Shown here: positions 2 through 17,445 of the stretch, one piece after another
Position numbering within the stretch: the first letter of the stretch is position 1
How the letters are laid out: every line of letters starts with the position of its first letter
Assembly (NCBI GenBank): GCA_964595665.1
Contig: CAZQQS010000010.1
Location: forward strand, 1 to 18,695
Length of the DNA: 18,695 nucleotides
Reading direction: 5' to 3'
Source: an uncultured archaeon
GTDB taxonomy: Archaea; Iainarchaeota; Iainarchaeia; Iainarchaeales; 0-14-0-20-30-16
Position numbers and translations under genes: made by a program
The notes under the pieces: generated by a model
What the model was told of the DNA's origin: nothing
The model's database searches: none
The model's input: only the letters and a program-made list of their open reading frames with translations

Positions 2-181
2 AAAGTTTATTTTGCATGTAATAGAAAAGATGCTGCAAAAATTGGTTTTGATGATTCTGAAATCTATGACATTTTGTCTGGCAAGAAAAAAGAAAAACAA
101 TTCACTACAACACAAATTGATAGAAATGAATGTTTAATCGCATTTAAAGAATGGGCAAATAAAAAAGGAAAGAGATATTAA
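2..181 (+). CDS. 3' end of an ORF entering from the left edge (hypothetical protein, last 59 aa)
   Basis: Frame 2 is open from the window edge to TAA at 179-181 (KVYFACNRKDAAKIGFDDSEIYDILSGKKKEKQFTTTQIDRNECLIAFKEWANKKGKRY*). It is absent from the ORF track because no start lies in the window. No family recognised. Confidence 0.35.
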   Translation, partial: KVYFACNRKDAAKIGFDDSEIYDILSGKKKEKQFTTTQIDRNECLIAFKEWANKKGKRY

Positions 182-927
182 TATTCCCAATTTCGACCCT
201 TACTTTTTTTCTGTTTTTGTAAATCTAAAATATATTTTTTTGAATTCGGCAAAGTTTTTGCAAAGCTTAACAAAGCATCATATTCATATTGATGATGTAA
301 TGTATTTAGTACTGTAGAAGAACTCCCCTCTCTACTACCATATAAAATTCTTTCAAACACACTTTGTCTCAAAGTTAAACTTTTTATTTGCGATAATAAT
401 TCTAAATCATAAGCGTGTTGGAAACCACCATCGCCAGCACCTACAAAAGAATCACCAAATCTTTTAATTAATTCTTTTTGAAATTCTTTATCTTTACAAG
501 CATTATACACTCTTTCAAAATGTTCAATATCTGCAGCGCCATCTAATGCCCAATCAGCATATTGGTCTCTTAATTCTTTATTTCTTATACCTTTTATTTT
601 CTTAATACCTTGCACAGGATCTTCTAAAAAACTACTAATAAATTCATTTCTTTTATTTATTTGTTCTATTCTTACTTTTTCTGCTTCTACATATTTTCTT
701 TGTTGTTCTGACTTTTTTGCATCTACAATTGATTTCAGTTTTTGTTCTTTTGATGTATAAATGGCACTTCTTGTTTGGTCTTTTGGAGCAATATTTACTC
801 TAGAAGTTTTTGCTTTAGGTATTTGTTTTGGACTAGGAGGTGCACAACCAATTGGACCTAAAATTAATGAGCCCGTTACTGCTAATACTGTTGCTGCACG
901 TTTTATTGTTCTAATTGGTTTTGGCAT
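178..927 (-). CDS. Secreted hypothetical protein, MPKP-leader family member 1 (249 aa)
   Basis: N-terminus MPKPIRTIKRAATVLAVTGSLILGPIGC has a basic n-region plus hydrophobic h-region, i.e. a Sec-type signal. AGGAAG lies upstream of the ATG. Last gene of three tandem same-strand genes sharing the MPKP start and a C-terminal aromatic (..NWEY). Confidence 0.7.
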   Translation of the reverse strand: MPKPIRTIKRAATVLAVTGSLILGPIGCAPPSPKQIPKAKTSRVNIAPKDQTRSAIYTSKEQKLKSIVDAKKSEQQRKYVEAEKVRIEQINKRNEFISSFLEDPVQGIKKIKGIRNKELRDQYADWALDGAADIEHFERVYNACKDKEFQKELIKRFGDSFVGAGDGGFQHAYDLELLSQIKSLTLRQSVFERILYGSREGSSSTVLNTLHHQYEYDALLSFAKTLPNSKKYILDLQKQKKSKGRNWEY

Positions 928-938
928 AATATTACTTC

Positions 939-1394
939 CTAATATATTTCTAATACTTTTCTATATCTTAATTCTTTATGATTTTTCATAAAGTTTTCTA
1001 ATACTCTTTCTAATTGTTTATTTGTAATTGTTTTTTTCATTTTTGCTAAATCAAAATGTCCTCCATTTGGATCAGCTACAAAAAATTTAAAACAAAATCC
1101 TTCTATTAAATCTAATTTTGCCTCCATATTTGGCAAATCAAAAATTATATCTATTAATTGTTTTTCACTAACTACTTTTCCACGTTTATAAGCTTCAGGT
1201 AAATCTTTGTGCTCAAAAACGCGCATAGAAGTTCTGCTACTAAAATTAGTATTTCTTTTAACACATGCTGATTTAGTACATTCCCAACCTTCAGGCATTT
1301 TAGATATATGTAAATTATTATGTGCTGGAGCTAAAGATAAGCCCGCTGCCAAAGCTAATGTTGCAACTTTTATTCCAATTCTAGGTTTTGGCAT
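939..1394 (-). CDS. Secreted hypothetical protein, MPKP-leader family member 2 (151 aa)
   Basis: Signal peptide MPKPRIGIKVATLALAAGLSLAPA|HNNLH with an AxA-like cleavage site. C-terminal domain KLDLIEGFCFKFFVADPNGGHFDLAKMKKTITNKQLERVLENFM is clearly homologous to the next gene. 11-nt gap to the downstream gene. Confidence 0.7.
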   Translation of the reverse strand: MPKPRIGIKVATLALAAGLSLAPAHNNLHISKMPEGWECTKSACVKRNTNFSSRTSMRVFEHKDLPEAYKRGKVVSEKQLIDIIFDLPNMEAKLDLIEGFCFKFFVADPNGGHFDLAKMKKTITNKQLERVLENFMKNHKELRYRKVLEIY

Positions 1395-1426
1395 AATAAT
1401 CTCTCAAAAATAATTTAAAATATAAA

Positions 1427-2068
1427 TTAATACTCAAATTTTGTTTTAATATATTCGCCCCTATAAAGTCTTTTATCTTTATACTTAGTCATGAATAATT
1501 CCAACATTTTTTGCAATCTTTCATTTTTTATTTCTTTTTTCATTTGAGGAATATCAAAATATTCTCCTTTTGCATTTACTTTAAAATACCTAAAACAAAA
1601 CCCATTTAATAAATCCATTTTATCTTGTGTACGTGGAGTTTTTTTTAATAAAATTATTATGTTCTCTTCATTTACTTTTTTTCCAGCAACATAAAAGGGA
1701 GATTTATTTTTCTTTTCATAAATATTAATTGATTCGTTTAATCTTAAATTTCTTCCAACACCTTTTGAACCATAATTTACATCTGCACTCTTAGATTTAT
1801 TTTCAATAATACCTACAGCTTTAGATTTTTGAAATGGTTGTGATTGTTGAGCTTTTGGAGAATTTTTGGAACTTGAATTCTTTGAAGTATAACTAGGTTC
1901 TTTAGAAACATGTGCATTTTCAGCACTTACAGCAACTACTCGCGCATTATTTGAAACGTTTTTTTGAGGTGTAGAACTATGTATATGATGTGCTCCTAAC
2001 GCAATAGCTGAGGCAGTTAATCCAACAGCCACGATATTTTTTAATTTGGAAGGTTTTTTTATAGGCAT
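1427..2068 (-). CDS. Secreted hypothetical protein, MPKP-leader family member 3 (213 aa)
   Basis: Signal peptide MPIKKPSKLKNIVAVGLTASAIALGA|HHIHSS, followed by a Ser/Lys/Gln-rich linker. C-terminal domain KMDLLNGFCFRYFKVNAKGEYFDIPQMKKEIKNERLQKMLELFM is paralogous to 939..1394. Confidence 0.7.
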   Translation of the reverse strand: MPIKKPSKLKNIVAVGLTASAIALGAHHIHSSTPQKNVSNNARVVAVSAENAHVSKEPSYTSKNSSSKNSPKAQQSQPFQKSKAVGIIENKSKSADVNYGSKGVGRNLRLNESINIYEKKNKSPFYVAGKKVNEENIIILLKKTPRTQDKMDLLNGFCFRYFKVNAKGEYFDIPQMKKEIKNERLQKMLELFMTKYKDKRLYRGEYIKTKFEY

Positions 2069-2227: not shown

Positions 2228-2299
2228 GTCCCGTTAGCACAGCGGTGGTGCGTTCGACTGTTAATCGAGAGGTCGCAGGTTCGAATCCTGCACGGGACG
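2228..2299 (+). tRNA. tRNA-Asn (anticodon GTT)
   Basis: Hand-folded cloverleaf. Acceptor GTCCCGT/ACGGGAC, D stem GCAC/GTGC, anticodon stem TTCGA/TCGAG with loop CTGTTAA, T arm GCAGG-TTCGAAT-CCTGC, discriminator G. CCA is not encoded. Confidence 0.9.
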
Positions 2300-2358
2300 C
2301 TCTCTTATTCAAAAACAATTTTAAAGAGAATAGAATATGTATTGTACAATGGGGTGAA

Positions 2359-3648
2359 ATGATGTACATAGAAAAAGTTTTTAAAGAAAAAACAATAGGA
2401 AAAGAATATGAAATAAAAGGTTGGGTCTACAGAATACGAAAAATGAAAGATAAAATATTCGTAGTTGTAAGAGATTCGTATGGAATAATTCAAGTAGTTT
2501 TTGATGCAAATTCACCCCAATTTAATGATGCTGATAAACTAAAATCTGAGTGTTCAATAATCTTAAAAGGAAAGGTAAAAGAAGAACCTAAAGCTCCTAG
2601 AGGATATGAATTAGAAGGAACAGATTTACAAATAGTTCATATAGGGGAAGACTTTCCAATACAAAAAGATTATTCAAAAGAATTTTTAGCTGATGTTAGA
2701 CATTTATGGTTAAGATCTAGAAAACTAACAACTGCTTTGAAAGTTAGAGCAACTGCAATAAAAGCCATACACGAATATTTTGATTCTGAAGGCTTTTATG
2801 AATTCCAAAGTCCTATATTACAAAGTACTCAATGTGAAGGCGGTTCAGAATTATTTGAAGTAAAATATTTTGAAGAAAAAATGTTCTTAACTCAAACTTG
2901 GCAATTACCTGCAGAAGCAGGAATATTTGCTTTAGAAAAAATTTATACAGTTAGTCCAACATTTAGAGCTGAAAAATCTTTAACTTCTAGACATCTAACA
3001 GAATTTTGGATGATTGAAGCAGAAATGGCTTGGTATAAATTTGATGATATGTTAAAAACAGGTGAAGGCCTAATAAAACATATTGTAAAAAGGGTTTTGG
3101 AAGAACATAAAGATGATTTAGAAAACGTTATGGAAAGAGACACATCTAAATTATTGCCAACATTAGAAAAACCATTTCCTCGAATTACATATGATGAAGC
3201 ATTAAAATTATTAAAAGAAAAATGTGATTTTGAAGTTGAGTGGGGAAAAGATTTAAGAACTTTGGAAGAAGAAAAATTAGTTGCTTTGTTTGACACACCA
3301 GTAATAGTAACGCACTATCCAAAAGCTGTAAAAGCATTCTATATGAAAGAATCACCAGATAACCCAGATGTAGTTTTGGGATCAGATTTCTTGGCACCAG
3401 AAGGTTGTGGAGAAATTATTGGTGGATCGGAAAGAGAAGAAAAAATAGAATCTATAATTGCAAGATTAGAAGCACAAGGCGAAGACCCTAAAAATTATGG
3501 ATTTTATTTAGATACTCGAAAATATGGTTCTGTTCCGCATTCTGGATTTGGATTGGGATTAGAACGAATAATACGTTGGATTTGTGGATTAGAAACAATC
3601 AAAGATGCAATAGCATTCCCTAGAACACCAAATAGAAGATATCCATAA
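2359..3648 (+). CDS. asnS: Asparaginyl-tRNA synthetase (class IIb)
   Basis: N-terminal OB fold (EIKGWVYRIRKMKDKIFVVVRDSYGIIQVV). Class II motif 2 region FRAEKSLTSRHLTEFWMIEAEMAW is AsnRS-type rather than AspRS-type. Motif 3/C-terminus is GFGLGLERIIRWICGLETIKDAIAFPRTPNRRYP. The true start is taken as ATGATG at 2359, preceded by GGGGTGA; the track ORF start at 2245 runs through the tRNA-Asn gene. Confidence 0.9.
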   Translation: MMYIEKVFKEKTIGKEYEIKGWVYRIRKMKDKIFVVVRDSYGIIQVVFDANSPQFNDADKLKSECSIILKGKVKEEPKAPRGYELEGTDLQIVHIGEDFPIQKDYSKEFLADVRHLWLRSRKLTTALKVRATAIKAIHEYFDSEGFYEFQSPILQSTQCEGGSELFEVKYFEEKMFLTQTWQLPAEAGIFALEKIYTVSPTFRAEKSLTSRHLTEFWMIEAEMAWYKFDDMLKTGEGLIKHIVKRVLEEHKDDLENVMERDTSKLLPTLEKPFPRITYDEALKLLKEKCDFEVEWGKDLRTLEEEKLVALFDTPVIVTHYPKAVKAFYMKESPDNPDVVLGSDFLAPEGCGEIIGGSEREEKIESIIARLEAQGEDPKNYGFYLDTRKYGSVPHSGFGLGLERIIRWICGLETIKDAIAFPRTPNRRYP

Positions 3649-11550: not shown

Positions 11551-14500
11551 CTAATCTTCTTTATCTAAGGAATAATAGGTTTCTTTTGGGATTTCTTTCT
11601 TTGGGGTGTATTTCTTACCAAAGAAATATACTAAAAATGCTAGGAGAATAATAAAACCTATTCCAATGTAAAGCGAGTAATCTTTATTGCTTGAACCTAA
11701 AATAGCCAAACCTGAGAAATAAATTGAATCTACATATGAATTCAAATCATAATAATCTCTTGCTTGCAAATAATCTCTCTCATTTTTTAAATTTGCTTTT
11801 GCATAAACTAATTTGTTTTTTGCAGTATCTTGTAATTCTGCTTCTATTGTTTTAATATTTTTCTCTAAAATATCAAAATCATAAAAGAATTCTAAAAATG
11901 TTTTTTCAGAAATATTGTTTTCTTTGAGTAATAAATCTAAATTCAAAGTTTGTTTGGTTAGTTTAGATATATTTGTTTTTAAAGATTCCAAATCTTTTTG
12001 AGAAAAATTAAAACTTATCTTTAAATCTTTTAAAGATGAAAATCTAGATGAATTAATTTGAGAATCTAAACTTAATACTCTAGTCCATAAAAAATCCAAA
12101 TCTGATTTATATTTCTTATACTCTAAAATCAAATCTTTTTGAGAATTACTTTTTTCAGTTTTTTTAACATCTAAAATACTATTTAAAACTAATAATTCTT
12201 TTGAATACTCTGAAACATATTGCAAAGCATTTTCGTAAAAATAAGTTTTTAAAGAGCTATTAAATAAACTACTTATTCGCAAAATATTTGATTCATCTAA
12301 AACCAAAGAATATTCTTTAAAAGATTTTTTTAATTCATTAAATTCTTTTGTTTTATTGTTAAATATTGATAAAATAATTTCTTCAATTTCTTTATTTTTA
12401 AATTCAAAATTATCTAAAATCTTTAATGATTCTTTTATTTTTCCTAAAGCATATAATTCGTCAGATTGTTTAATTATTGAATCAATGTCTGCAAAATTTG
12501 GCAAATCATTTAAATAAATATTATAATCCGAAGATAAAATATCTTTGGCAGAATTAAATTGTTCTTTGTAATTTAACATCAATTGAATCTTATCTTTTCT
12601 TTGTAATTCATATAATGAATTTGTTATAGATTCTGAAAGTAAAACATCAATTTTGGATTTTAATGAAACTATGCCTTTTGCCAAAGTTAAACTATCTTTT
12701 GAATTTTTTAAAGAATCTAATAGCTTTTTTAATTCAAATATTTTTTCATTAGAAACCCAAGGTAATTTTTCTAAATTTAATATGTCCTTTTCTAATGCCT
12801 CGATTTCAGAATTAAATTCTAAAGAGTCTTTTGTAATAATCATTGTAATTGTTTTTGATTCTAAAGGCAATAAATCTATATTAAAATAAATCTTATCTGC
12901 TTTAGTACCATATTCTAAATTCTCTTTAAAAGAAATTTTATTTAGAAGAACATCATTAATATTAGGTATGAAAATCTCTAAATTATCTAAAGACATTTCT
13001 AAATTGTTACCCACATATATTTCATAAATCAAATTATTTCCAGAAATATTAATTAATTTATATTTTAAATTTATTGAGTTATCTAAAATAAATGTTACAT
13101 CTAAACAAACTTTTTTATTAGTTATCGAATTAAAATAAATTTTTAGATCTTGGTCAATTTTTGAATTTAATATAACTCCATTTAAGGAAACACTATGAGA
13201 TAAAATTGAATCCTTGTCAAAACCTAAATTTATTACCTCGTAAATCTTGGAATTTATTAAACAAACTTCTTGAACCAAATTCAATTTATTTGAATTCAAT
13301 TCTAAAGATTTGGTTTTTATGGATTGGATAAAATTTTGTTTTACATCTAATTTAAAAATATCTTTTAAACAAGTAAATTTGATTATCTGAGAATCTAAAT
13401 TAAAACTAGCTATACAATCGCCAGAAACTGTAGAAAATAATAAATCATTAAATTTAATTTCGTAATTTAATTCTAAATCCCCCAAATAAGGATATAGTTC
13501 TAATTTTAATTCGTTTAATTCATAAATGCTATTAAAATAACAATTCAAATTGTTTTGTAAATCTTTCTTAATAGCTTCTTTTAACAAATTTAATTTTGAA
13601 GAGTAATCTAAAACATTTTGAGATACTAAAAATATATTTGTGATTTTATCATCAGAATATTTTGTCTTACCAAATAAAGAATTATACTCTAAAAGATATG
13701 AATAATATTTCTCATACGAAATACAAGAACTATTTTGATATAAATTCTCGTATGCAAAATAAAGCTCATCTAAAAGCTTAACTTCTTGTTTAAAATTTTG
13801 ATATTGAATAGAAGTATTTAATTTAAATATATAAGTATTTAATTGAGACTCACAGTCTTCTAAATTATATTCCAAACCTAAAAAATTTGATAAATTCTTT
13901 AAATAATAAGTACAATTTTCTTTTGAATTATCTTTTAATTCAAAATAGTTATTGCAATACAATAATTTTTCTCTATCTATTGCTGATTTGAAAAACAAAT
14001 TTAAATAATTTTCCAATAATGGTTTATTGGCATTTGATTCTAAATAACTAAAACTTTGTTTTTCTAAAGTTAAATCTGCTGTGCAAAGCGTAATTAAAGA
14101 TTTCAAATCAGCTTCTTCAAACACCAACAATTCGGATTCGAGTTCATTTATCTTCTGTTCCAAAGTATTTAATTTAGAATATTTCTCGCCTAAGCTAAGT
14201 TTTGGGAAATTTACTAATTCTAACTTAGAGTTTGTAATTAATTTTGACAATTCATTTGGAGACTTAACCAAGTTATATTTATTATAAAGCAAAGTAAATT
14301 CATCTTTGTTAATTATTTTTGAATTTAATTGTAATTCAAAAACATTTAATTTTTTTTCCAAAGCTGATTTTCGCTTTAATACATCTTGCTCTAAATTAGT
14401 CAATTCCAAATCTATATCCTTTACCAAATCAAAATATGCTTTGGGAGAATAAGAATTTTTGCCAAAGGATTTTTCAAAATCTTGTAAAAAAACTCTAAAA

Positions 14501-15450
14501 AATCTTAAATTGTCCCATTCAGATAAATTACTTTTTGATATAGCCAATTTAAAATAATCTGACAAAGTATTTGCAATACTTTTAGTTAAAATAAAACTTG
14601 CAACTAATCCGGCAGTAGAAATGCTTTTCATACCAAAATAAGCTATACTTCCAGTTGCAAATATCGAAGAGGCCCAACCAAAAACATTACTTTCAAAACT
14701 TATATCTGTGTTTAAAGTTGTTAATGCAGTTTGCAATTCTATTTTAGATTCTTCTGTAGAATAATTTTTTATATAAAAATCTATGGAGGATTTTGCCAAA
14801 GATTCTTTTACATCTATATCTTTTCCAGTAGATTTTATGAATTCATTAATAACGTTATTTAATTCAATATATTGCAAATATACTTTTGAATCTTGCATTA
14901 ATAAAACATTTTTATCCAATAAATCTTTCTTTATTGAAAACAAAGACGCAATAAAACTAAACATAAATTCATTTGTATGATAATCCAGACGTTTTGTGTT
15001 ATCCAACAATTCTTCTTTATATTCCAAATAATCTGTATCAAAAAAACTATCACATATTGAATTTATTTGAATAAAATTATAGGCTATTTTATCACTATAC
15101 TTCCAAGACTCAATTAAATTATATCTATAATTATTTATTAAATTCTGAGATTCAATACTTAAATTATTAAAGATTATATTTGGGGAAATATTGCTATTAA
15201 ATGATTTTTCACAATCTTTATTAGTTACCCCATTAGAATAAGATGAACAAATGGGATAATTATTTAATGGGTTACTAATTTCTTTGCATAATTTTTTTGC
15301 ATCCGTATAAGATACACAATCTGAATCTTCATCATTAACACAAAAAGTAACGCAACCTGAAAAAAACACCATTAAAAGCAAGCTAAAAAATAATACAAAA
15401 ATAGGAATATTTTTATTAATACTCTTACTATAATTATATTTAGAGGACAT
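11551..15450 (-). CDS. Giant (1299 aa) surface protein: lipobox signal peptide, Cys-rich head, hydrophobic hairpin, long coiled-coil/beta-rich ectodomain, C-terminal TM anchor
   Basis: Uninterrupted 3.9-kb ORF. N-terminus IPIFVLFFSLLLMVFFSGC has lipobox-like FSGC with Cys at aa 33, followed by 6 further Cys within about 50 aa. Internal hydrophobic stretch FGWASSIFATGSIAYFGMKSISTAGLVASFIL. Asn/Leu/Lys/Ser/Glu-rich heptad-like regions. C-terminal YSLYIGIGFIILLAFLVYFFGKKY plus a short charged tail. Confidence 0.85.
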   Translation of the reverse strand: MSSKYNYSKSINKNIPIFVLFFSLLLMVFFSGCVTFCVNDEDSDCVSYTDAKKLCKEISNPLNNYPICSSYSNGVTNKDCEKSFNSNISPNIIFNNLSIESQNLINNYRYNLIESWKYSDKIAYNFIQINSICDSFFDTDYLEYKEELLDNTKRLDYHTNEFMFSFIASLFSIKKDLLDKNVLLMQDSKVYLQYIELNNVINEFIKSTGKDIDVKESLAKSSIDFYIKNYSTEESKIELQTALTTLNTDISFESNVFGWASSIFATGSIAYFGMKSISTAGLVASFILTKSIANTLSDYFKLAISKSNLSEWDNLRFFRVFLQDFEKSFGKNSYSPKAYFDLVKDIDLELTNLEQDVLKRKSALEKKLNVFELQLNSKIINKDEFTLLYNKYNLVKSPNELSKLITNSKLELVNFPKLSLGEKYSKLNTLEQKINELESELLVFEEADLKSLITLCTADLTLEKQSFSYLESNANKPLLENYLNLFFKSAIDREKLLYCNNYFELKDNSKENCTYYLKNLSNFLGLEYNLEDCESQLNTYIFKLNTSIQYQNFKQEVKLLDELYFAYENLYQNSSCISYEKYYSYLLEYNSLFGKTKYSDDKITNIFLVSQNVLDYSSKLNLLKEAIKKDLQNNLNCYFNSIYELNELKLELYPYLGDLELNYEIKFNDLLFSTVSGDCIASFNLDSQIIKFTCLKDIFKLDVKQNFIQSIKTKSLELNSNKLNLVQEVCLINSKIYEVINLGFDKDSILSHSVSLNGVILNSKIDQDLKIYFNSITNKKVCLDVTFILDNSINLKYKLINISGNNLIYEIYVGNNLEMSLDNLEIFIPNINDVLLNKISFKENLEYGTKADKIYFNIDLLPLESKTITMIITKDSLEFNSEIEALEKDILNLEKLPWVSNEKIFELKKLLDSLKNSKDSLTLAKGIVSLKSKIDVLLSESITNSLYELQRKDKIQLMLNYKEQFNSAKDILSSDYNIYLNDLPNFADIDSIIKQSDELYALGKIKESLKILDNFEFKNKEIEEIILSIFNNKTKEFNELKKSFKEYSLVLDESNILRISSLFNSSLKTYFYENALQYVSEYSKELLVLNSILDVKKTEKSNSQKDLILEYKKYKSDLDFLWTRVLSLDSQINSSRFSSLKDLKISFNFSQKDLESLKTNISKLTKQTLNLDLLLKENNISEKTFLEFFYDFDILEKNIKTIEAELQDTAKNKLVYAKANLKNERDYLQARDYYDLNSYVDSIYFSGLAILGSSNKDYSLYIGIGFIILLAFLVYFFGKKYTPKKEIPKETYYSLDKED

Positions 15451-15498
15451 AATGTCTACTATATAGCAACTTTGAAAAATATAAATGTTTTGGTCTTT
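15451..15498. promoter_or_regulatory. Compact divergent promoter region between the giant surface-protein gene and the wHTH gene
   Basis: The two divergent starts are only 48 bp apart. A/T palindromic TATA-like boxes are present (CTATATAG 15459-15466; AAATATAAAT 15477-15486) and could serve either direction. No experimental support. Confidence 0.3.
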
Positions 15499-15858
15499 AT
15501 GGAAGAAATAAGAATATATATGCGATATGAACGAAGAGAAATGAATCCAGCATACGCATTCTTAGAGGCTCTGGGTTTTGATAAGAATCAAGATAAAGTT
15601 GCCAAGATATTAGAAGAATTAAAGAAAAAACCCTTAAGTTCATTAGAATTGAGCAAAAAAATTGATTTGAGTAGAAGCACAACAATTTATTATTTGGATA
15701 TTTTATTAAAAAGAGGGTTAATTTGCCATTACAACAAAAAGTTTTATTTAGCTGGGAATGCTTTTAGTCAAGTAATCCAAGTAATTGAAATGGAAACAAC
15801 AAAAAGTATAATGCATTTGAAAAAGATTGCAAAAGAATTAGATGAAAAAACTAAATGA
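15499..15858 (+). CDS. Small winged-helix (ArsR/TrmB-like) transcriptional regulator
   Basis: KVAKILEELKKKPLSSLELSKKIDLSRSTTIYYLDILLKRGLI is a helix-turn-helix plus wing (HYNKKFYL). The start is uncertain: track TTG 15472, or ATG at 15499, 15520 or 15541. The stop overlaps the next gene start (ATGA). Confidence 0.7.
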   Translation: MEEIRIYMRYERREMNPAYAFLEALGFDKNQDKVAKILEELKKKPLSSLELSKKIDLSRSTTIYYLDILLKRGLICHYNKKFYLAGNAFSQVIQVIEMETTKSIMHLKKIAKELDEKTK

Positions 15859-16370
15859 TTCAAATGATTAGATACTTATTTTATCCAGGAGTTGTTGTAC
15901 ATGAATTTGCACACTTAATAATATGTATATTCTTAAATGTTAAAGTAAGCAAATTGAAATTCGGATTAAAAGAATCTTATGTAAAACACGATAGTACAGG
16001 GCCAATAAGAATGGCCTTAATTGCTTTAGCCCCATTTTATATTGGAATAATTATTTCTTTTTTAACAATTATTTTTGCAAAAGAATTAAATTTTGCATGG
16101 TTCTTATTTTTTAATTATTTAATATTTGCAATACTTTACAACTCTTTACCAAGTATTCAAGATATAAAAAATATTGTTTCGTCAATAAAAGAAAGCATCC
16201 AAAAAGACTGGAAAAAAAATTTTGCCAGAAAATTAATCTTATTATTAAAAATACCTTTAATATTCTTTCCAATATACCTATGTGCCAAAATAATTGGATT
16301 AATAGATAAATTTGAAATCTTAAGAATTTTATATGTTATGTTTATATTTATATTAATTTATACTTTTTAA
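15855..16370 (+). CDS. Minimal membrane-embedded zinc metalloprotease, site-2-protease (M50/M50B)-like (171 aa)
   Basis: HExxH lies inside the first hydrophobic segment (PGVVVHEFAHLIICIFLNVKVSKLKFG; compare the RseP-type HEFGHF..A...G.+VE.F motif). A later membrane motif LYNSLPSIQD resembles the M50 NxxPxxxxDG. About 5 TM segments. 4-nt ATGA overlap with the wHTH gene. Confidence 0.6.
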   Translation: MIQMIRYLFYPGVVVHEFAHLIICIFLNVKVSKLKFGLKESYVKHDSTGPIRMALIALAPFYIGIIISFLTIIFAKELNFAWFLFFNYLIFAILYNSLPSIQDIKNIVSSIKESIQKDWKKNFARKLILLLKIPLIFFPIYLCAKIIGLIDKFEILRILYVMFIFILIYTF

Positions 16371-16432
16371 ACAACAATATTTTTAAACCCTAATGTTCCA
16401 TTAATATATACTAATTTTATATAATTAGCTTT

Positions 16433-16505
16433 GCGCCTATGGTCCAGCGGTTACGACGTCGCCCTTACAAGGCGAAGATCCCCGGTTCAATCCCGGGTAG
16501 GCGCA
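16433..16505 (+). tRNA. tRNA-Val (anticodon TAC)
   Basis: Acceptor GCGCCTA/TAGGCGC, anticodon stem TCGCC/GGCGA with loop CTTACAA, T arm CCCGG-TTCAATC-CCGGG, discriminator A. Confidence 0.9.
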
Positions 16506-16527
16506 TACAAAATAAAAAGGGATAATT

Positions 16528-16686
16528 ATGACATTTGAAGAAGCAAATAATAGATTATTAAAAGATGTATGGATATGCATGAGCTGTGGAGCAAAACAAA
16601 GAGGTTCAAAAGCCAAAGCACCTAGCAAATGTAATAAATGTAGTAGATCTGAATTCAGAATAAAACATAAACAAAAGAAGAAGTAA
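16528..16686 (+). CDS. rpl40e: 50S ribosomal protein L40e (52 aa; not in the ORF track)
   Basis: MTFEEANNRLLKDVWICMSCGAKQRGSKAKAPSKCNKCSRSEFRIKHKQKKK* has the CxxC...CxxC zinc ribbon and the ICM.CGA motif typical of archaeal L40e. AAGGG lies 8 nt upstream. It starts 22 nt after tRNA-Val. Confidence 0.8.
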   Translation: MTFEEANNRLLKDVWICMSCGAKQRGSKAKAPSKCNKCSRSEFRIKHKQKKK

Positions 16687-16706
16687 AGTAATACTTTACT
16701 TTTTTT
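16681..16706 (+). terminator. Hairpin + T-run terminator after rpl40e
   Basis: AAGTAAAG(16681-16688)-TAATA-CTTTACTT(16694-16701) followed by TTTTT. The stem includes the TAA stop. Confidence 0.5.
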
Positions 16707-16775
16707 ACTTATTTTTAAACTACTTTTAATTTACCAGAATATTTTGAATTGTTTAAAATATAATTCAAATCTATA

Positions 16776-17445
16776 TTGTATTCTATTGCAAATAAATATG
16801 ATATTCAAAATAAAGCTAGTTTAAAAAAATATGATTTAGATATTAAATTTTTTGAAAACATAAAGATTAAAAAGATTAAACCAAAAACCGTACTTGATTT
16901 AGGGTGTGGAACAGGAAATCTAAACTCAATAGCAATAACAACCTTTCCAAGCATAAATAAAATTATAGGTATTGACAACTCTAAAGAAGAAATAAAGATT
17001 GCTAAAAAAAAATAATCTTAGTGAAAAAATTAATTTTTTTGTTAGGGATATGAATAAAACACAATTACCTAAAAATTATTTTGATTTAATATATAGTAGA
17101 CTTGCAATACACTACTCTAAAAACTTAAATGAAACATTCAAAGAATTAAATAGAATAACTAAATCCAAAGGTTGGATATATTTCCAGGATGCGCACCCAA
17201 TATATTCTTTATTTTTAAAAAAATCTAAAGATTATGAAAAAAAAGAAAATGTAGAATTTTTAATTCAAGGTGGAGATTTAAAAGTTGTTCACCCAACATT
17301 CACTTTAGAGGAATACATTAACGCAATAATAAATAATGGTTGGAAAATAGAATTGTTTAGAGAAATTTATGGACCTAGGAGTAATAGTATAAAAAACTAT
17401 AGATTGCCAGCTACGTTTATTATGTTGTTAAGAAAAACAAATTAA
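16776..17445 (+). pseudogene. Class I SAM-dependent methyltransferase interrupted by a frameshift in an A9 homopolymer
   Basis: ORF 16776..17015 carries motif I (VLDLGCGTGNL) and IGIDNS. ORF 16999..17445, in the +1 frame, carries the rest (INFFVRDM, DLIYSRLAIHY, KSKGWIYFQD). They join seamlessly if the run A(17004-17012) is one base shorter (..EEIKIAKKNNLSEKINFF..). The first ORF has only a TTG start. Confidence 0.7.

Follow-up and report, generated by a model that had tools for sequence, protein, structure and literature searches.

Do a winged-helix regulator, a small membrane protein and a giant envelope protein, encoded side by side in an uncultured archaeon, work together as a proteolytic switch? 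The three genes span about 4.8 kb of an 18,695-nucleotide stretch of DNA (contig CAZQQS010000010.1 of assembly GCA_964595665.1), which as a whole is called the window here. They are arranged as follows.

11551..15450, minus strand: giant gene, encoding an orphan 1299-residue envelope protein (an open reading frame, ORF, with orthologues in seven other loci)
15451..15498, no strand assigned: 48-bp divergent control region common to the giant and regulator genes, with two A/T boxes
15499..15858, plus strand: gene of an ArsR/SmtB-like winged-helix regulator of 119 residues with a long C-terminal helix (from Pfam, AlphaFold2 and Foldseek)
15855..16370, plus strand: gene of a predicted membrane metalloprotease core of the site-2 protease (S2P) clan, M50B-like, 171 residues (from Pfam relatives, AlphaFold2, Foldseek and a family profile)

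I found that this triad is a conserved three-gene module of Diapherotrites (DPANN), and that the 171-residue protein is very probably a real S2P-clan protease in a conserved functional triad. The original prediction for this locus had been made from the sequence letters, and its statements on coordinates, motifs, the 48-bp spacer and the single C-terminal transmembrane (TM) helix with its tail are all correct. The three ORFs are not due to chance, since long ORFs are rare at the 20-31% G+C of the window and all three genes have full-length orthologues. The window also carries the ribosomal protein genes S3Ae, S15, and L40e and four tRNAs. An archaeal origin of the contig is supported by these ribosomal protein genes and by the nearest named relatives, which are Candidatus Diapherotrites and Iainarchaeum metagenome-assembled genomes (MAGs). 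The G+C content is uniform, and no sign of a foreign island was seen in the window.

Conservation of the Triad

Is the triad found elsewhere? The regulator, protease and giant genes occur together in all eight distinct loci recovered with a close protease homologue (at least 42% identity), which answers the check on related MAGs that the original prediction had proposed. The eight loci are the window, L001 (also represented by L002 and L003), L004, L005, L006 (also L007 and L008), L009, L010, and L011. The close protease subfamily was seen only together with the giant and the regulator. The upstream flank consists of the S15 and S3Ae genes in the window, L001, L009, and L011 and of a spermidine synthase gene in L004, while L005 and L006 are flanked by other genes. 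In L010, a NUDIX gene and a gene for a 188-residue protein without a Pfam match are inserted between the regulator and protease genes (L010:2632-3757), and the divergent giant-regulator pair is intact. Downstream in L010 (4746-8240) lies a gene for a different, Cys-rich repeat protein of 1164 residues.

Between the loci, sequence identity is 54-64% for S3Ae, 50-55% for the protease, 56-71% for the regulator, and 30-35% for the giant protein. Since the protease is nearly as similar between the same loci as S3Ae is, it is under purifying selection, with a constraint comparable to that on a ribosomal protein. In the window and in most of the orthologous loci (compared in L001-L004, L006, L010, and L011), the triad is closely followed downstream by a 52-residue L40e gene (window 16528-16686). 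S3Ae-S15 and L40e enclose the triad in the window, L001, L009, and L011, and some of the synteny is therefore due to inherited gene order. In literature searches, no published description of a triad of regulator, S2P core and giant protein in Diapherotrites was found. Thus, the triad appears to be undescribed, while the protease family is widespread and already known.

The 171-Residue Protein as an S2P Core

The original prediction had read the 171-residue protein as an S2P-like membrane metalloprotease. The segments that bear on this reading are listed below.

15900..15914, plus strand: HEFAH (residues 16-20, with H16, E17, and H20), predicted zinc-binding and catalytic motif in TM helix 1
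15945..15989, plus strand: K-rich beta-hairpin (residues 31-45) ending in an invariant YVKH, with model strands at 31-35 and 42-45
16149..16163, plus strand: PSIQD (P99, S100, and D103), distal Pro/Asp motif at the end of TM helix 3, assigned from the alignment

PSIQD is the end of the stretch LYNSLPSIQD (residues 94-103). In Pfam searches with the single protein, M50B was matched at E 0.011 with 15.8 bits (cut-off 26) and M50 at E 0.016 with 15.0 bits (cut-off 27.2), and PF11667 (DUF3267) was not matched. Homologues connected with it at E-values as low as 1e-30 or lower score 29.7-32.6 bits with M50B and 29.5 bits with DUF3267. Membership in the S2P clan therefore appears to be transitive, at the edge of the Pfam models. 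A word-indexed search yielded 16 homologues. In the alignment of these and the window protein (17 sequences), H16, E17, H20, C24, G37, Y42, V43, H45, P60, P99, S100, D103, and N106 are invariant. M50B and M50 were each matched by 15 of the 17 members and DUF3267 by 11, with best E-values of 6e-8 for M50B, 5e-7 for DUF3267, and 6.5e-5 for M50. In a larger family alignment of 129 sequences, P60, P99, S100, and D103 are still invariant, and conservation reaches at least 90% for P11, G12, H16, E17, H20, C24, V43, and H45. Across the family, the Asn at position 96 is not retained, and the spacing of the distal motif is a variant, PSxxD. When the 129-sequence profile was searched against the sequences of the PDB, the best match was the M. 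jannaschii S2P (MjS2P; 3b4r, E 0.011). Profile positions 11-177 align with residues 36-206 of 3b4r, so that HExxH falls on HELGH, and PSxxD falls on FPMDG, which contains the Asp zinc ligand of MjS2P.

A model built with AlphaFold2 from the 17-sequence alignment has a predicted local distance difference test score (pLDDT) of 91.8 and a predicted template modelling score (pTM) of 0.83. In this model, a first hydrophobic helix (10-26), in which HEFAH is embedded, is followed by the beta-hairpin (31-45), helices 50-75 and 80-95, the PSIQD turn, an amphipathic helix (101-119), and two further membrane helices. There are five membrane helices in total, and nearly all residues lie in them. The model has the three-TM catalytic core and the membrane-reentrant beta-hairpin that define the S2P fold. 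The Foldseek comparison that the original prediction had suggested was run on it, and the first five PDB matches are all S2Ps: MjS2P, SpoIVFB with pro-sigmaK (two entries), and Aquifex aeolicus RseP (two entries). The probability was up to 0.96, and the best local fit was 2.8 A root mean square deviation over 103 columns.

Thus, S2Ps of solved structure (3b4r; SpoIVFB with pro-sigmaK, 8vjl; RseP, 9j82/9j83 and 7w6x) are the best and the only coherent PDB matches. They have in common with the 171-residue protein an HExxH in a TM helix, a beta-hairpin, a second TM helix, and a third one ending in Pro...Asp. In contrast to them, the 171-residue protein has no equivalent of TM1 and no PDZ, CBS, or other soluble domain; its distal motif is PSxxD rather than NxxPxxxxDG; two near-invariant residues, C24 and H45, are added; and a winged-helix protein takes the place of a sigma or anti-sigma factor as its partner. 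By score, the similarity is marginal (E 0.011-0.1). Loops 27-49 and 96-122 are rich in K/R, which puts the hairpin, HExxH, and D103 on the cytoplasmic side. By the positive-inside rule, I infer an active site facing the cytoplasmic leaflet, like that of S2Ps. The position of the hairpin matches that of the membrane-reentrant beta sheet that binds the substrate in RseP (PMC11864173). Judged from sequence and model, the 171-residue protein is a membrane core of the S2P clan that corresponds to TM2-TM6 of MjS2P, has no soluble domain and is predicted to be proteolytic.

The original prediction had named three things that would speak against it: loss of the HExxH residues in homologues, a model without an S2P-like site, and a gene pair never syntenic with a giant gene. 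The opposite was found for all three. HExxH and the distal Pro/Asp are conserved, the fold is S2P-like, and the giant gene is syntenic.

C24 (15924-15926), one helical turn past H20 in an HExxHxxxC pattern, and H45 (15987-15989), at the hairpin end in a YVxH pattern, are each at least 90% conserved among the 129 sequences. Neither has a counterpart in the alignment with MjS2P. They could serve as a further metal ligand or act as a latency or redox switch.

The Mini-S2P Family and Its Neighbours

Is such a small protease unusual? The original prediction had called it an unusually stripped-down member, and this view did not hold. An exhaustive profile search, counted as cluster representatives across Bacteria and Archaea, gave 1,892 representatives at E<=1e-3 and 479 at E<=1e-10. 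The median length is 179 residues among the top 149 matches, and lengths of 165-200 residues are typical for the family. Moreover, small enzymes of this kind have already been documented. TmcP, a member of DUF3267, was described in a 2026 preprint as a 4-TM S2P-clan protease (PMC13252029). Its HExxH His and distal Asp are needed for removal of the leader of a membrane-embedded precursor of a ribosomally synthesised and post-translationally modified peptide (RiPP), and most DUF3267 proteins have four TM helices only (PMC13252029). TmcP resembles the 171-residue protein in being a small, membrane-only S2P-clan enzyme with HExxH and a distal Pro/Asp. The activity of TmcP is backed by mutation of its His and Asp (PMC13252029), and that of the window protein is predicted. 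TmcP has four TM helices, lacks gate helices and needs a separate 2-TM escort protein, TmcE, whereas the window protein has five helices and can be aligned through TM6 of MjS2P. The genes of the TmcP pathway, for a RiPP precursor, a thiol-disulfide enzyme and an ABC exporter, are absent at the window locus. A role as a RiPP leader protease of the TmcP type was rejected on account of the five helices and of the neighbours, which are the winged-helix, giant and tRNA/L40e genes.

The family has other gene neighbours as well. In 22 bacterial loci (L015-L021, L025-L033, L036-L039, L045, and L048), a mini-S2P homologue of about 175 residues is directly preceded, on the same strand, by the gene of a conserved protein of about 303 residues (for example, L015:5066-5977 followed by L015:5983-6510). 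Most of these loci are from Bacteroidota; Ignavibacteria, Phycisphaerae, and Sedimentisphaerales contribute one each. The 303-residue protein has no Pfam match. It has four CxxC pairs (two Zn-ribbons), a TM helix at about residues 92-112 and a TPR-like C-terminal part. It is an N-in single-pass (type II) protein, with the topology of a classical S2P substrate. The pair looks like an apparently undescribed two-gene cassette. Among the longer family members examined, no Rosetta-stone fusion of a protease with a helix-turn-helix (HTH) domain was found; their extensions are unannotated, Zn-finger/B-box, or DUF1444-like.

The remoter archaeal homologues (from Micrarchaeota, other Iainarchaeum, and P0020) have neither the regulator nor the giant. 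Nearby genes there encode small membrane proteins, a pilin-like protein or an archaeosortase-like protein. The P0020 homologue (L050:692-1210) is convergent to a gene for a small archaeosortase/exosortase-like membrane protein (L050:1323-1883, minus strand; a weak EpsH match), and a patatin gene also lies beside it. This is another envelope-processing context for the family.

These distributions raise the possibility that the window protein is a housekeeping enzyme, a general S2P for signal-peptide clearance or membrane quality control that just happens to be in one operon with a local regulator. In that case, the regulator would have the giant gene as its target, and nothing specific would link the giant gene to the protease. 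The breadth of the family, with its roughly 1,900 cluster representatives, fits this view, and so do the homologues of Patescibacteria and other DPANN, whose neighbours are unrelated (NIF3-like genes, RF2, a pilin-like gene and genes of small membrane proteins). DPANN have reduced genomes, and the order of genes next to those for ribosomal proteins is partly inherited; L40e, too, is syntenic. However, the triad outlasts the changes of flank in L004, L005, and L006 and the insertion in L010, the close protease subfamily is confined to loci with the giant and the regulator, and the spacing of at most 7 nt described below implies co-translation with the regulator. I consider the housekeeping explanation improbable.

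The Regulator and the Shared Control Region

What kind of regulator is it? The regulator matches HTH_5 with 29.1 bits (cut-off 22) and HTH_24 with 26.5 bits (cut-off 21.9) in Pfam. Its AlphaFold2 model has an overall pLDDT of 72, with a winged-helix core at residues 28-84 (pLDDT 87-92) followed by a 33-residue C-terminal helix (86-118). Foldseek retrieved SmtB, CzrA, CadC, and MarR-type repressors at a probability of 1.0 and E-values of about 1e-3. No conserved Cys/His metal site was seen in regulator alignments of seven and eight sequences, and the sole Cys of the window regulator is replaced by Y, E, Q, or F in the orthologues. The regulator has an ArsR-like fold and is probably not a metal sensor. 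Homologues were found only in the Diapherotrites clade. A conserved tail precedes the fold.

15499..15543, plus strand: N-terminal tail of the regulator, residues 1-15, MEEIRIYMRYERREM, disordered in the model with a pLDDT of about 30

The pattern M-x-E-[IV]-[RK]-[IL]-[FYI]-[MFV] is kept in this tail in all eight orthologues, even at 30% overall identity.

The original prediction had put the regulator at about 120 residues, and 119 were obtained. The ORF as listed (15472-15858, plus strand) is a TTG-extended form. All orthologues begin at the residue that matches the ATG at 15499 (MEEIRIY...), and the spacer to the ATG of the giant gene (15450) is therefore exactly 48 bp. A GGTGA-like Shine-Dalgarno sequence lies 5-8 nt ahead of the regulator ATG in the orthologues, and TTGGTC is found in the window. 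At the other end of the gene, the TGA (15856-15858) overlaps the protease ATG at 15855 as ATGA, on which a translational coupling had been proposed. The overlap itself is not kept in the orthologues, which have gaps of 1-7 nt, while the tight coupling is kept: the distance between the two genes is -4 to +7 nt in seven of the eight loci. A second in-frame ATG at 15864 is an alternative start of the protease and aligns with the orthologous starts. To judge from the gene positions, a spacing of at most 7 nt implies co-translation, and the two genes are a putative co-transcribed, tightly coupled pair.

The spacer between the giant and regulator genes measures 44-84 bp in the seven orthologous loci. 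In the window, it contains two A/T (TATA-like) boxes, CTATATAG at 15458-15465 and ATATAAAT at 15478-15485. Such boxes, 14-16 nt apart, also occur in several orthologous spacers.

This layout resembles the bla and mec systems, as the original prediction had noted. In BlaI/BlaR1 and MecI/MecR1, an operon for a winged-helix repressor and a membrane zinc protease is divergent from its target gene, with a short shared control region. The operon layout of the window indeed mirrors blaZ / blaR1-blaI, but the likeness is architectural only. Among the window protein and 17 homologues, no match to M56 (PF05569) or to a transpeptidase was found at E<=1, and Penicillinase_R (PF03965) is not among the 15 families that the regulator matched at E<=1. 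Homology to BlaR1/M56 and to BlaI was rejected accordingly. In contrast to BlaR1 and MecR1, the 171-residue protein has no extracellular sensor domain, its active site would be intramembrane rather than in a cytoplasmic loop domain, and the regulator gene comes first. BlaI and MecI are inactivated by cleavage; a parallel here is only proposed.

Could the regulator be controlled without cleavage? In SdpR/SdpI, an ArsR-like repressor and a polytopic membrane protein are likewise encoded in one operon, and control is exerted at the membrane. By analogy, the 171-residue protein or the cytoplasmic tail of the giant would hold the regulator at the membrane. The regulator has a weak NCBIfam match to the SdpR autorepressor family (E 3.5e-4, far under the cut-off), the layout is the same, and the conserved tail of the giant suggests a binding partner. 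However, the 171-residue protein has no similarity to SdpI, which is not a metalloprotease. The conservation of H16, E17, H20, and D103 together with P99 and S100 over a large evolutionary distance would be unexpected for a pure scaffold. Sequestration of this type is very improbable. Since the triad persists and the catalytic residues are invariant, both sequestration and housekeeping are less likely.

The Giant Protein as a Possible Substrate

The giant protein has no match in Pfam, NCBIfam, PADLOC, or the PDB sequences, and a profile of its eight orthologues found nothing in the PDB sequences or Pfam. A word-indexed search recovered two close relatives only. In the seven other loci of the triad, its orthologues are full-length (1322-1361 residues, 22-35% identity) and always divergent from the regulator gene. 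Eleven Cys residues are invariant among them. A role in defence was rejected, as PADLOC gave only a generic HTH match of Csa3/CasR. Conservation was measured as the mean column conservation over the eight orthologues, which is 0.48 for the whole protein. Three membrane-proximal segments stand out.

15352..15450, minus strand: signal peptide with a lipobox-like motif, residues 1-33, ...FFSGC, with S31-G32-C33 invariant
11620..11676, minus strand: C-terminal TM helix, residues about 1259-1277, SLYIGIGFIILLAFLVYFF, marked by its conservation
11554..11619, minus strand: predicted cytoplasmic tail, residues 1278-1299, ...KETYYSLDKED-COOH, 22 residues, K-rich

Residues 30-33 are (F/L/I)-S-G-C in all eight orthologues and are preceded by a K-rich n-region and a hydrophobic core. 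The N-terminus has the form of a Sec-type lipobox signal peptide, which makes the giant a putative lipoprotein. The mean conservation of this signal peptide is 0.59. Lipobox proteins are reported to be common in DPANN, and the signal peptidase of archaeal lipoproteins has yet to be found (PMC12462473). The TM helix (SLYIGIGFIILL...) is the second most conserved 20-residue stretch of the protein (0.71), with G1263, F1266, and L1270 invariant and a helix-destabilising G-x-G. The tail is placed in the cytoplasm because a K/R-rich segment adjoins the membrane. It ends in ETYY[STN][LVI][DE][KR][ED][DEN] in seven of the eight orthologues and in TTYYTVDKDD in L005, and T1291-Y1292-Y1293 is invariant. 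The recognition helix of the regulator, TTIYYLDILLK (15682-15714), contains (I/N)YYLD, which resembles the invariant TYY of this tail (11554-11586). The likeness is probably a coincidence, though both segments are conserved.

Is the giant protein itself the substrate? The mini-S2P may cut one of its two membrane-embedded ends. One is the lipobox signal peptide, which is N-in, the orientation that S2Ps prefer; cutting it would parallel the clearance or processing of signal peptides by RseP and Eep. The other is the conserved C-terminal anchor, which would be cut after shedding of the ectodomain. In either case, cleavage would free a fragment into the cytoplasm, either the peptide of the n-region or the ETYY tail, and this fragment would modulate the regulator. 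Several observations fit cleavage of the giant. Within this fast-evolving protein, the anchor ranks second in conservation among all stretches, and it includes the G-x-G. The signal peptide and the terminal ETYY motif are above the average conservation, and the protease is the only co-conserved membrane protein nearby. In Bacteroidota, homologues of the protease are paired with a single-pass membrane protein. RseP, RasP, and Eep are S2Ps that act on N-in signal peptides, and the lipobox signal peptide of the giant has this orientation. Lipoprotein signal-peptide pheromones made by Eep act on HTH regulators. S2Ps normally cut TM segments, and RseP removes signal peptides (PMC8144685).

On the other side, RseP, RasP, and Eep are large, PDZ-bearing, general-purpose enzymes that are not encoded beside their substrates, and a signal-peptide protease dedicated to one protein is not known to have a precedent. 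The C-terminal anchor is N-out/C-in, opposite to the N-in orientation of RseP substrates (PMC11864173). The module encodes no site-1 protease, and cleavage of the giant would leave it unexplained why the protease is coupled to the regulator rather than to the giant gene. The original prediction had offered the TM anchor as a target. Its orientation is opposite to that of known S2P substrates, but its conservation and G-x-G argue for a specific intramembrane partner. Overall, cleavage of the giant is the main rival to the switch proposed below, though it is rather unlikely. A still bolder variant makes the triad a self-contained archaeal circuit of regulated intramembrane proteolysis, in which the cut end of the giant, lipobox signal peptide or anchor, would free an n-region or ETYY peptide as a ligand of the regulator; this I regard as decidedly unlikely.

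A Proposed Proteolytic Switch

How might the three proteins work together? By analogy, the triad may be a proteolytic switch on a shared promoter, resembling both BlaI/BlaR1 and SpoIVFB/pro-σK, and I judge the chances of this reading to be about even. The winged-helix regulator would bind the shared control region and set the transcription of the giant gene and of its own operon. It is taken to act on the 48-bp region because the layout copies blaZ / blaR1-blaI. The protease would turn a cue at the membrane into an altered activity of the regulator by cutting its conserved, flexible N-terminal tail. This tail would dock as an added strand on the beta-hairpin of the protease, like pro-sigmaK on SpoIVFB, and the inactivation of BlaI by BlaR1 would be a further parallel. 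The TM helix and ETYY tail of the giant would be the likeliest input, via gating or recruitment, because the protease has no sensor domain. In this way, how much giant protein the membrane contains, or the state it is in, would feed back on the transcription of the giant gene.

That the regulator is the cleaved substrate is a tentative proposal, on balance somewhat doubtful. It is favoured over other targets because of the translational coupling, the recurrence of an operon partner as the substrate, and the precedent of SpoIVFB, an S2P that cuts the N-terminal extension of a transcription factor that does not span the membrane. The theme of the operon partner is seen in the family with TmcP and TmcA and with the 303-residue protein of the 22 bacterial loci; TmcP is encoded beside its substrate TmcA (PMC13252029). 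In S2Ps, the substrate joins the reentrant hairpin as an extra strand, and its N-terminus lies on the cytoplasmic side (PMC11864173).

Several points weigh against the proposed switch. The 171-residue protein by itself scores under the Pfam gathering thresholds, and even its best Foldseek E-value, 0.096, is weak. A search of the eight orthologous spacers for a conserved palindromic operator gave only the A/T boxes and the GGTGA-like Shine-Dalgarno sequence. Nearly all known S2P substrates span the membrane, and a soluble regulator would be an exception. The tail of the regulator is charged, whereas the prosequence of pro-sigmaK is hydrophobic. The low pLDDT of the tail, obtained with a 7-sequence alignment, may reflect a segment that folds on dimerisation. 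The remoter archaeal and Patescibacteria homologues of the protease lack any winged-helix partner. Finally, the conserved TM helix and signal peptide of the giant fit cleavage of the giant at least as well.

Other Features of the Window

Downstream of the protease gene, two features were found.

16380..16384, plus strand: T5 run shortly 3' of the protease stop codon, read from the sequence
16432-16506: tRNA-Val, downstream of the T5 run

The T5 run is a possible archaeal terminator that would close the two-gene operon. An Rfam scan of 15000-17000 found nothing besides the tRNA-Val. Two minus-strand ORFs of 62 and 53 residues within the regulator and protease genes have no support and were treated as spurious.

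At the other end of the window (178-2068, minus strand), three consecutive ORFs encode proteins of 249, 151, and 213 residues that all start with MPKP or MPIKKP followed by a signal-peptide-like hydrophobic stretch. The first (249 residues) has a lipobox-like GPIGC, and the second and third share a related C-terminal region (...LDLIEGFCFKFF... and ...MDLLNGFCFRYF...). The three proteins appear to form a small family of paralogues, secreted or lipid-anchored. A tRNA-Asn (2228-2300) lies directly upstream of an asparaginyl/aspartyl-tRNA-synthetase-like gene (2245-3648), whose GTG-start form overlaps it. The true start of the synthetase is probably an internal ATG (MYIEKVF...).

Implications

The protease is of a known type, the organisms have not been cultured, and the mechanism is a proposal. 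Within these limits, the module bears on the targets of archaeal S2Ps, which were called unknown in reviews of archaeal membrane proteases from 2015 (PMC4343526) and 2022 (PMC9263693). The cassette combines an S2P core and a transcription factor with a membrane-anchored envelope protein that is conserved in three features near the membrane, and it narrows the search for the substrate of an archaeal S2P to two proteins, the regulator and the giant. Mini-S2Ps of the M50B-like/DUF3267 kind recur beside a probable substrate, the regulator in this lineage and the Zn-ribbon-TM-TPR protein in the 22 bacterial loci. This may give a general rule for substrate assignment in a family of about 1,900 clusters, most of which are unannotated. 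The giant protein, which is lineage-specific, could matter for the envelope or the host contact of these DPANN cells. If its signal peptide is what the protease cuts, the module would bear on the signal-peptide processing step of archaeal lipoproteins. If the circuit reading is true, the triad would provide the first defined substrate and signalling role for any archaeal S2P.

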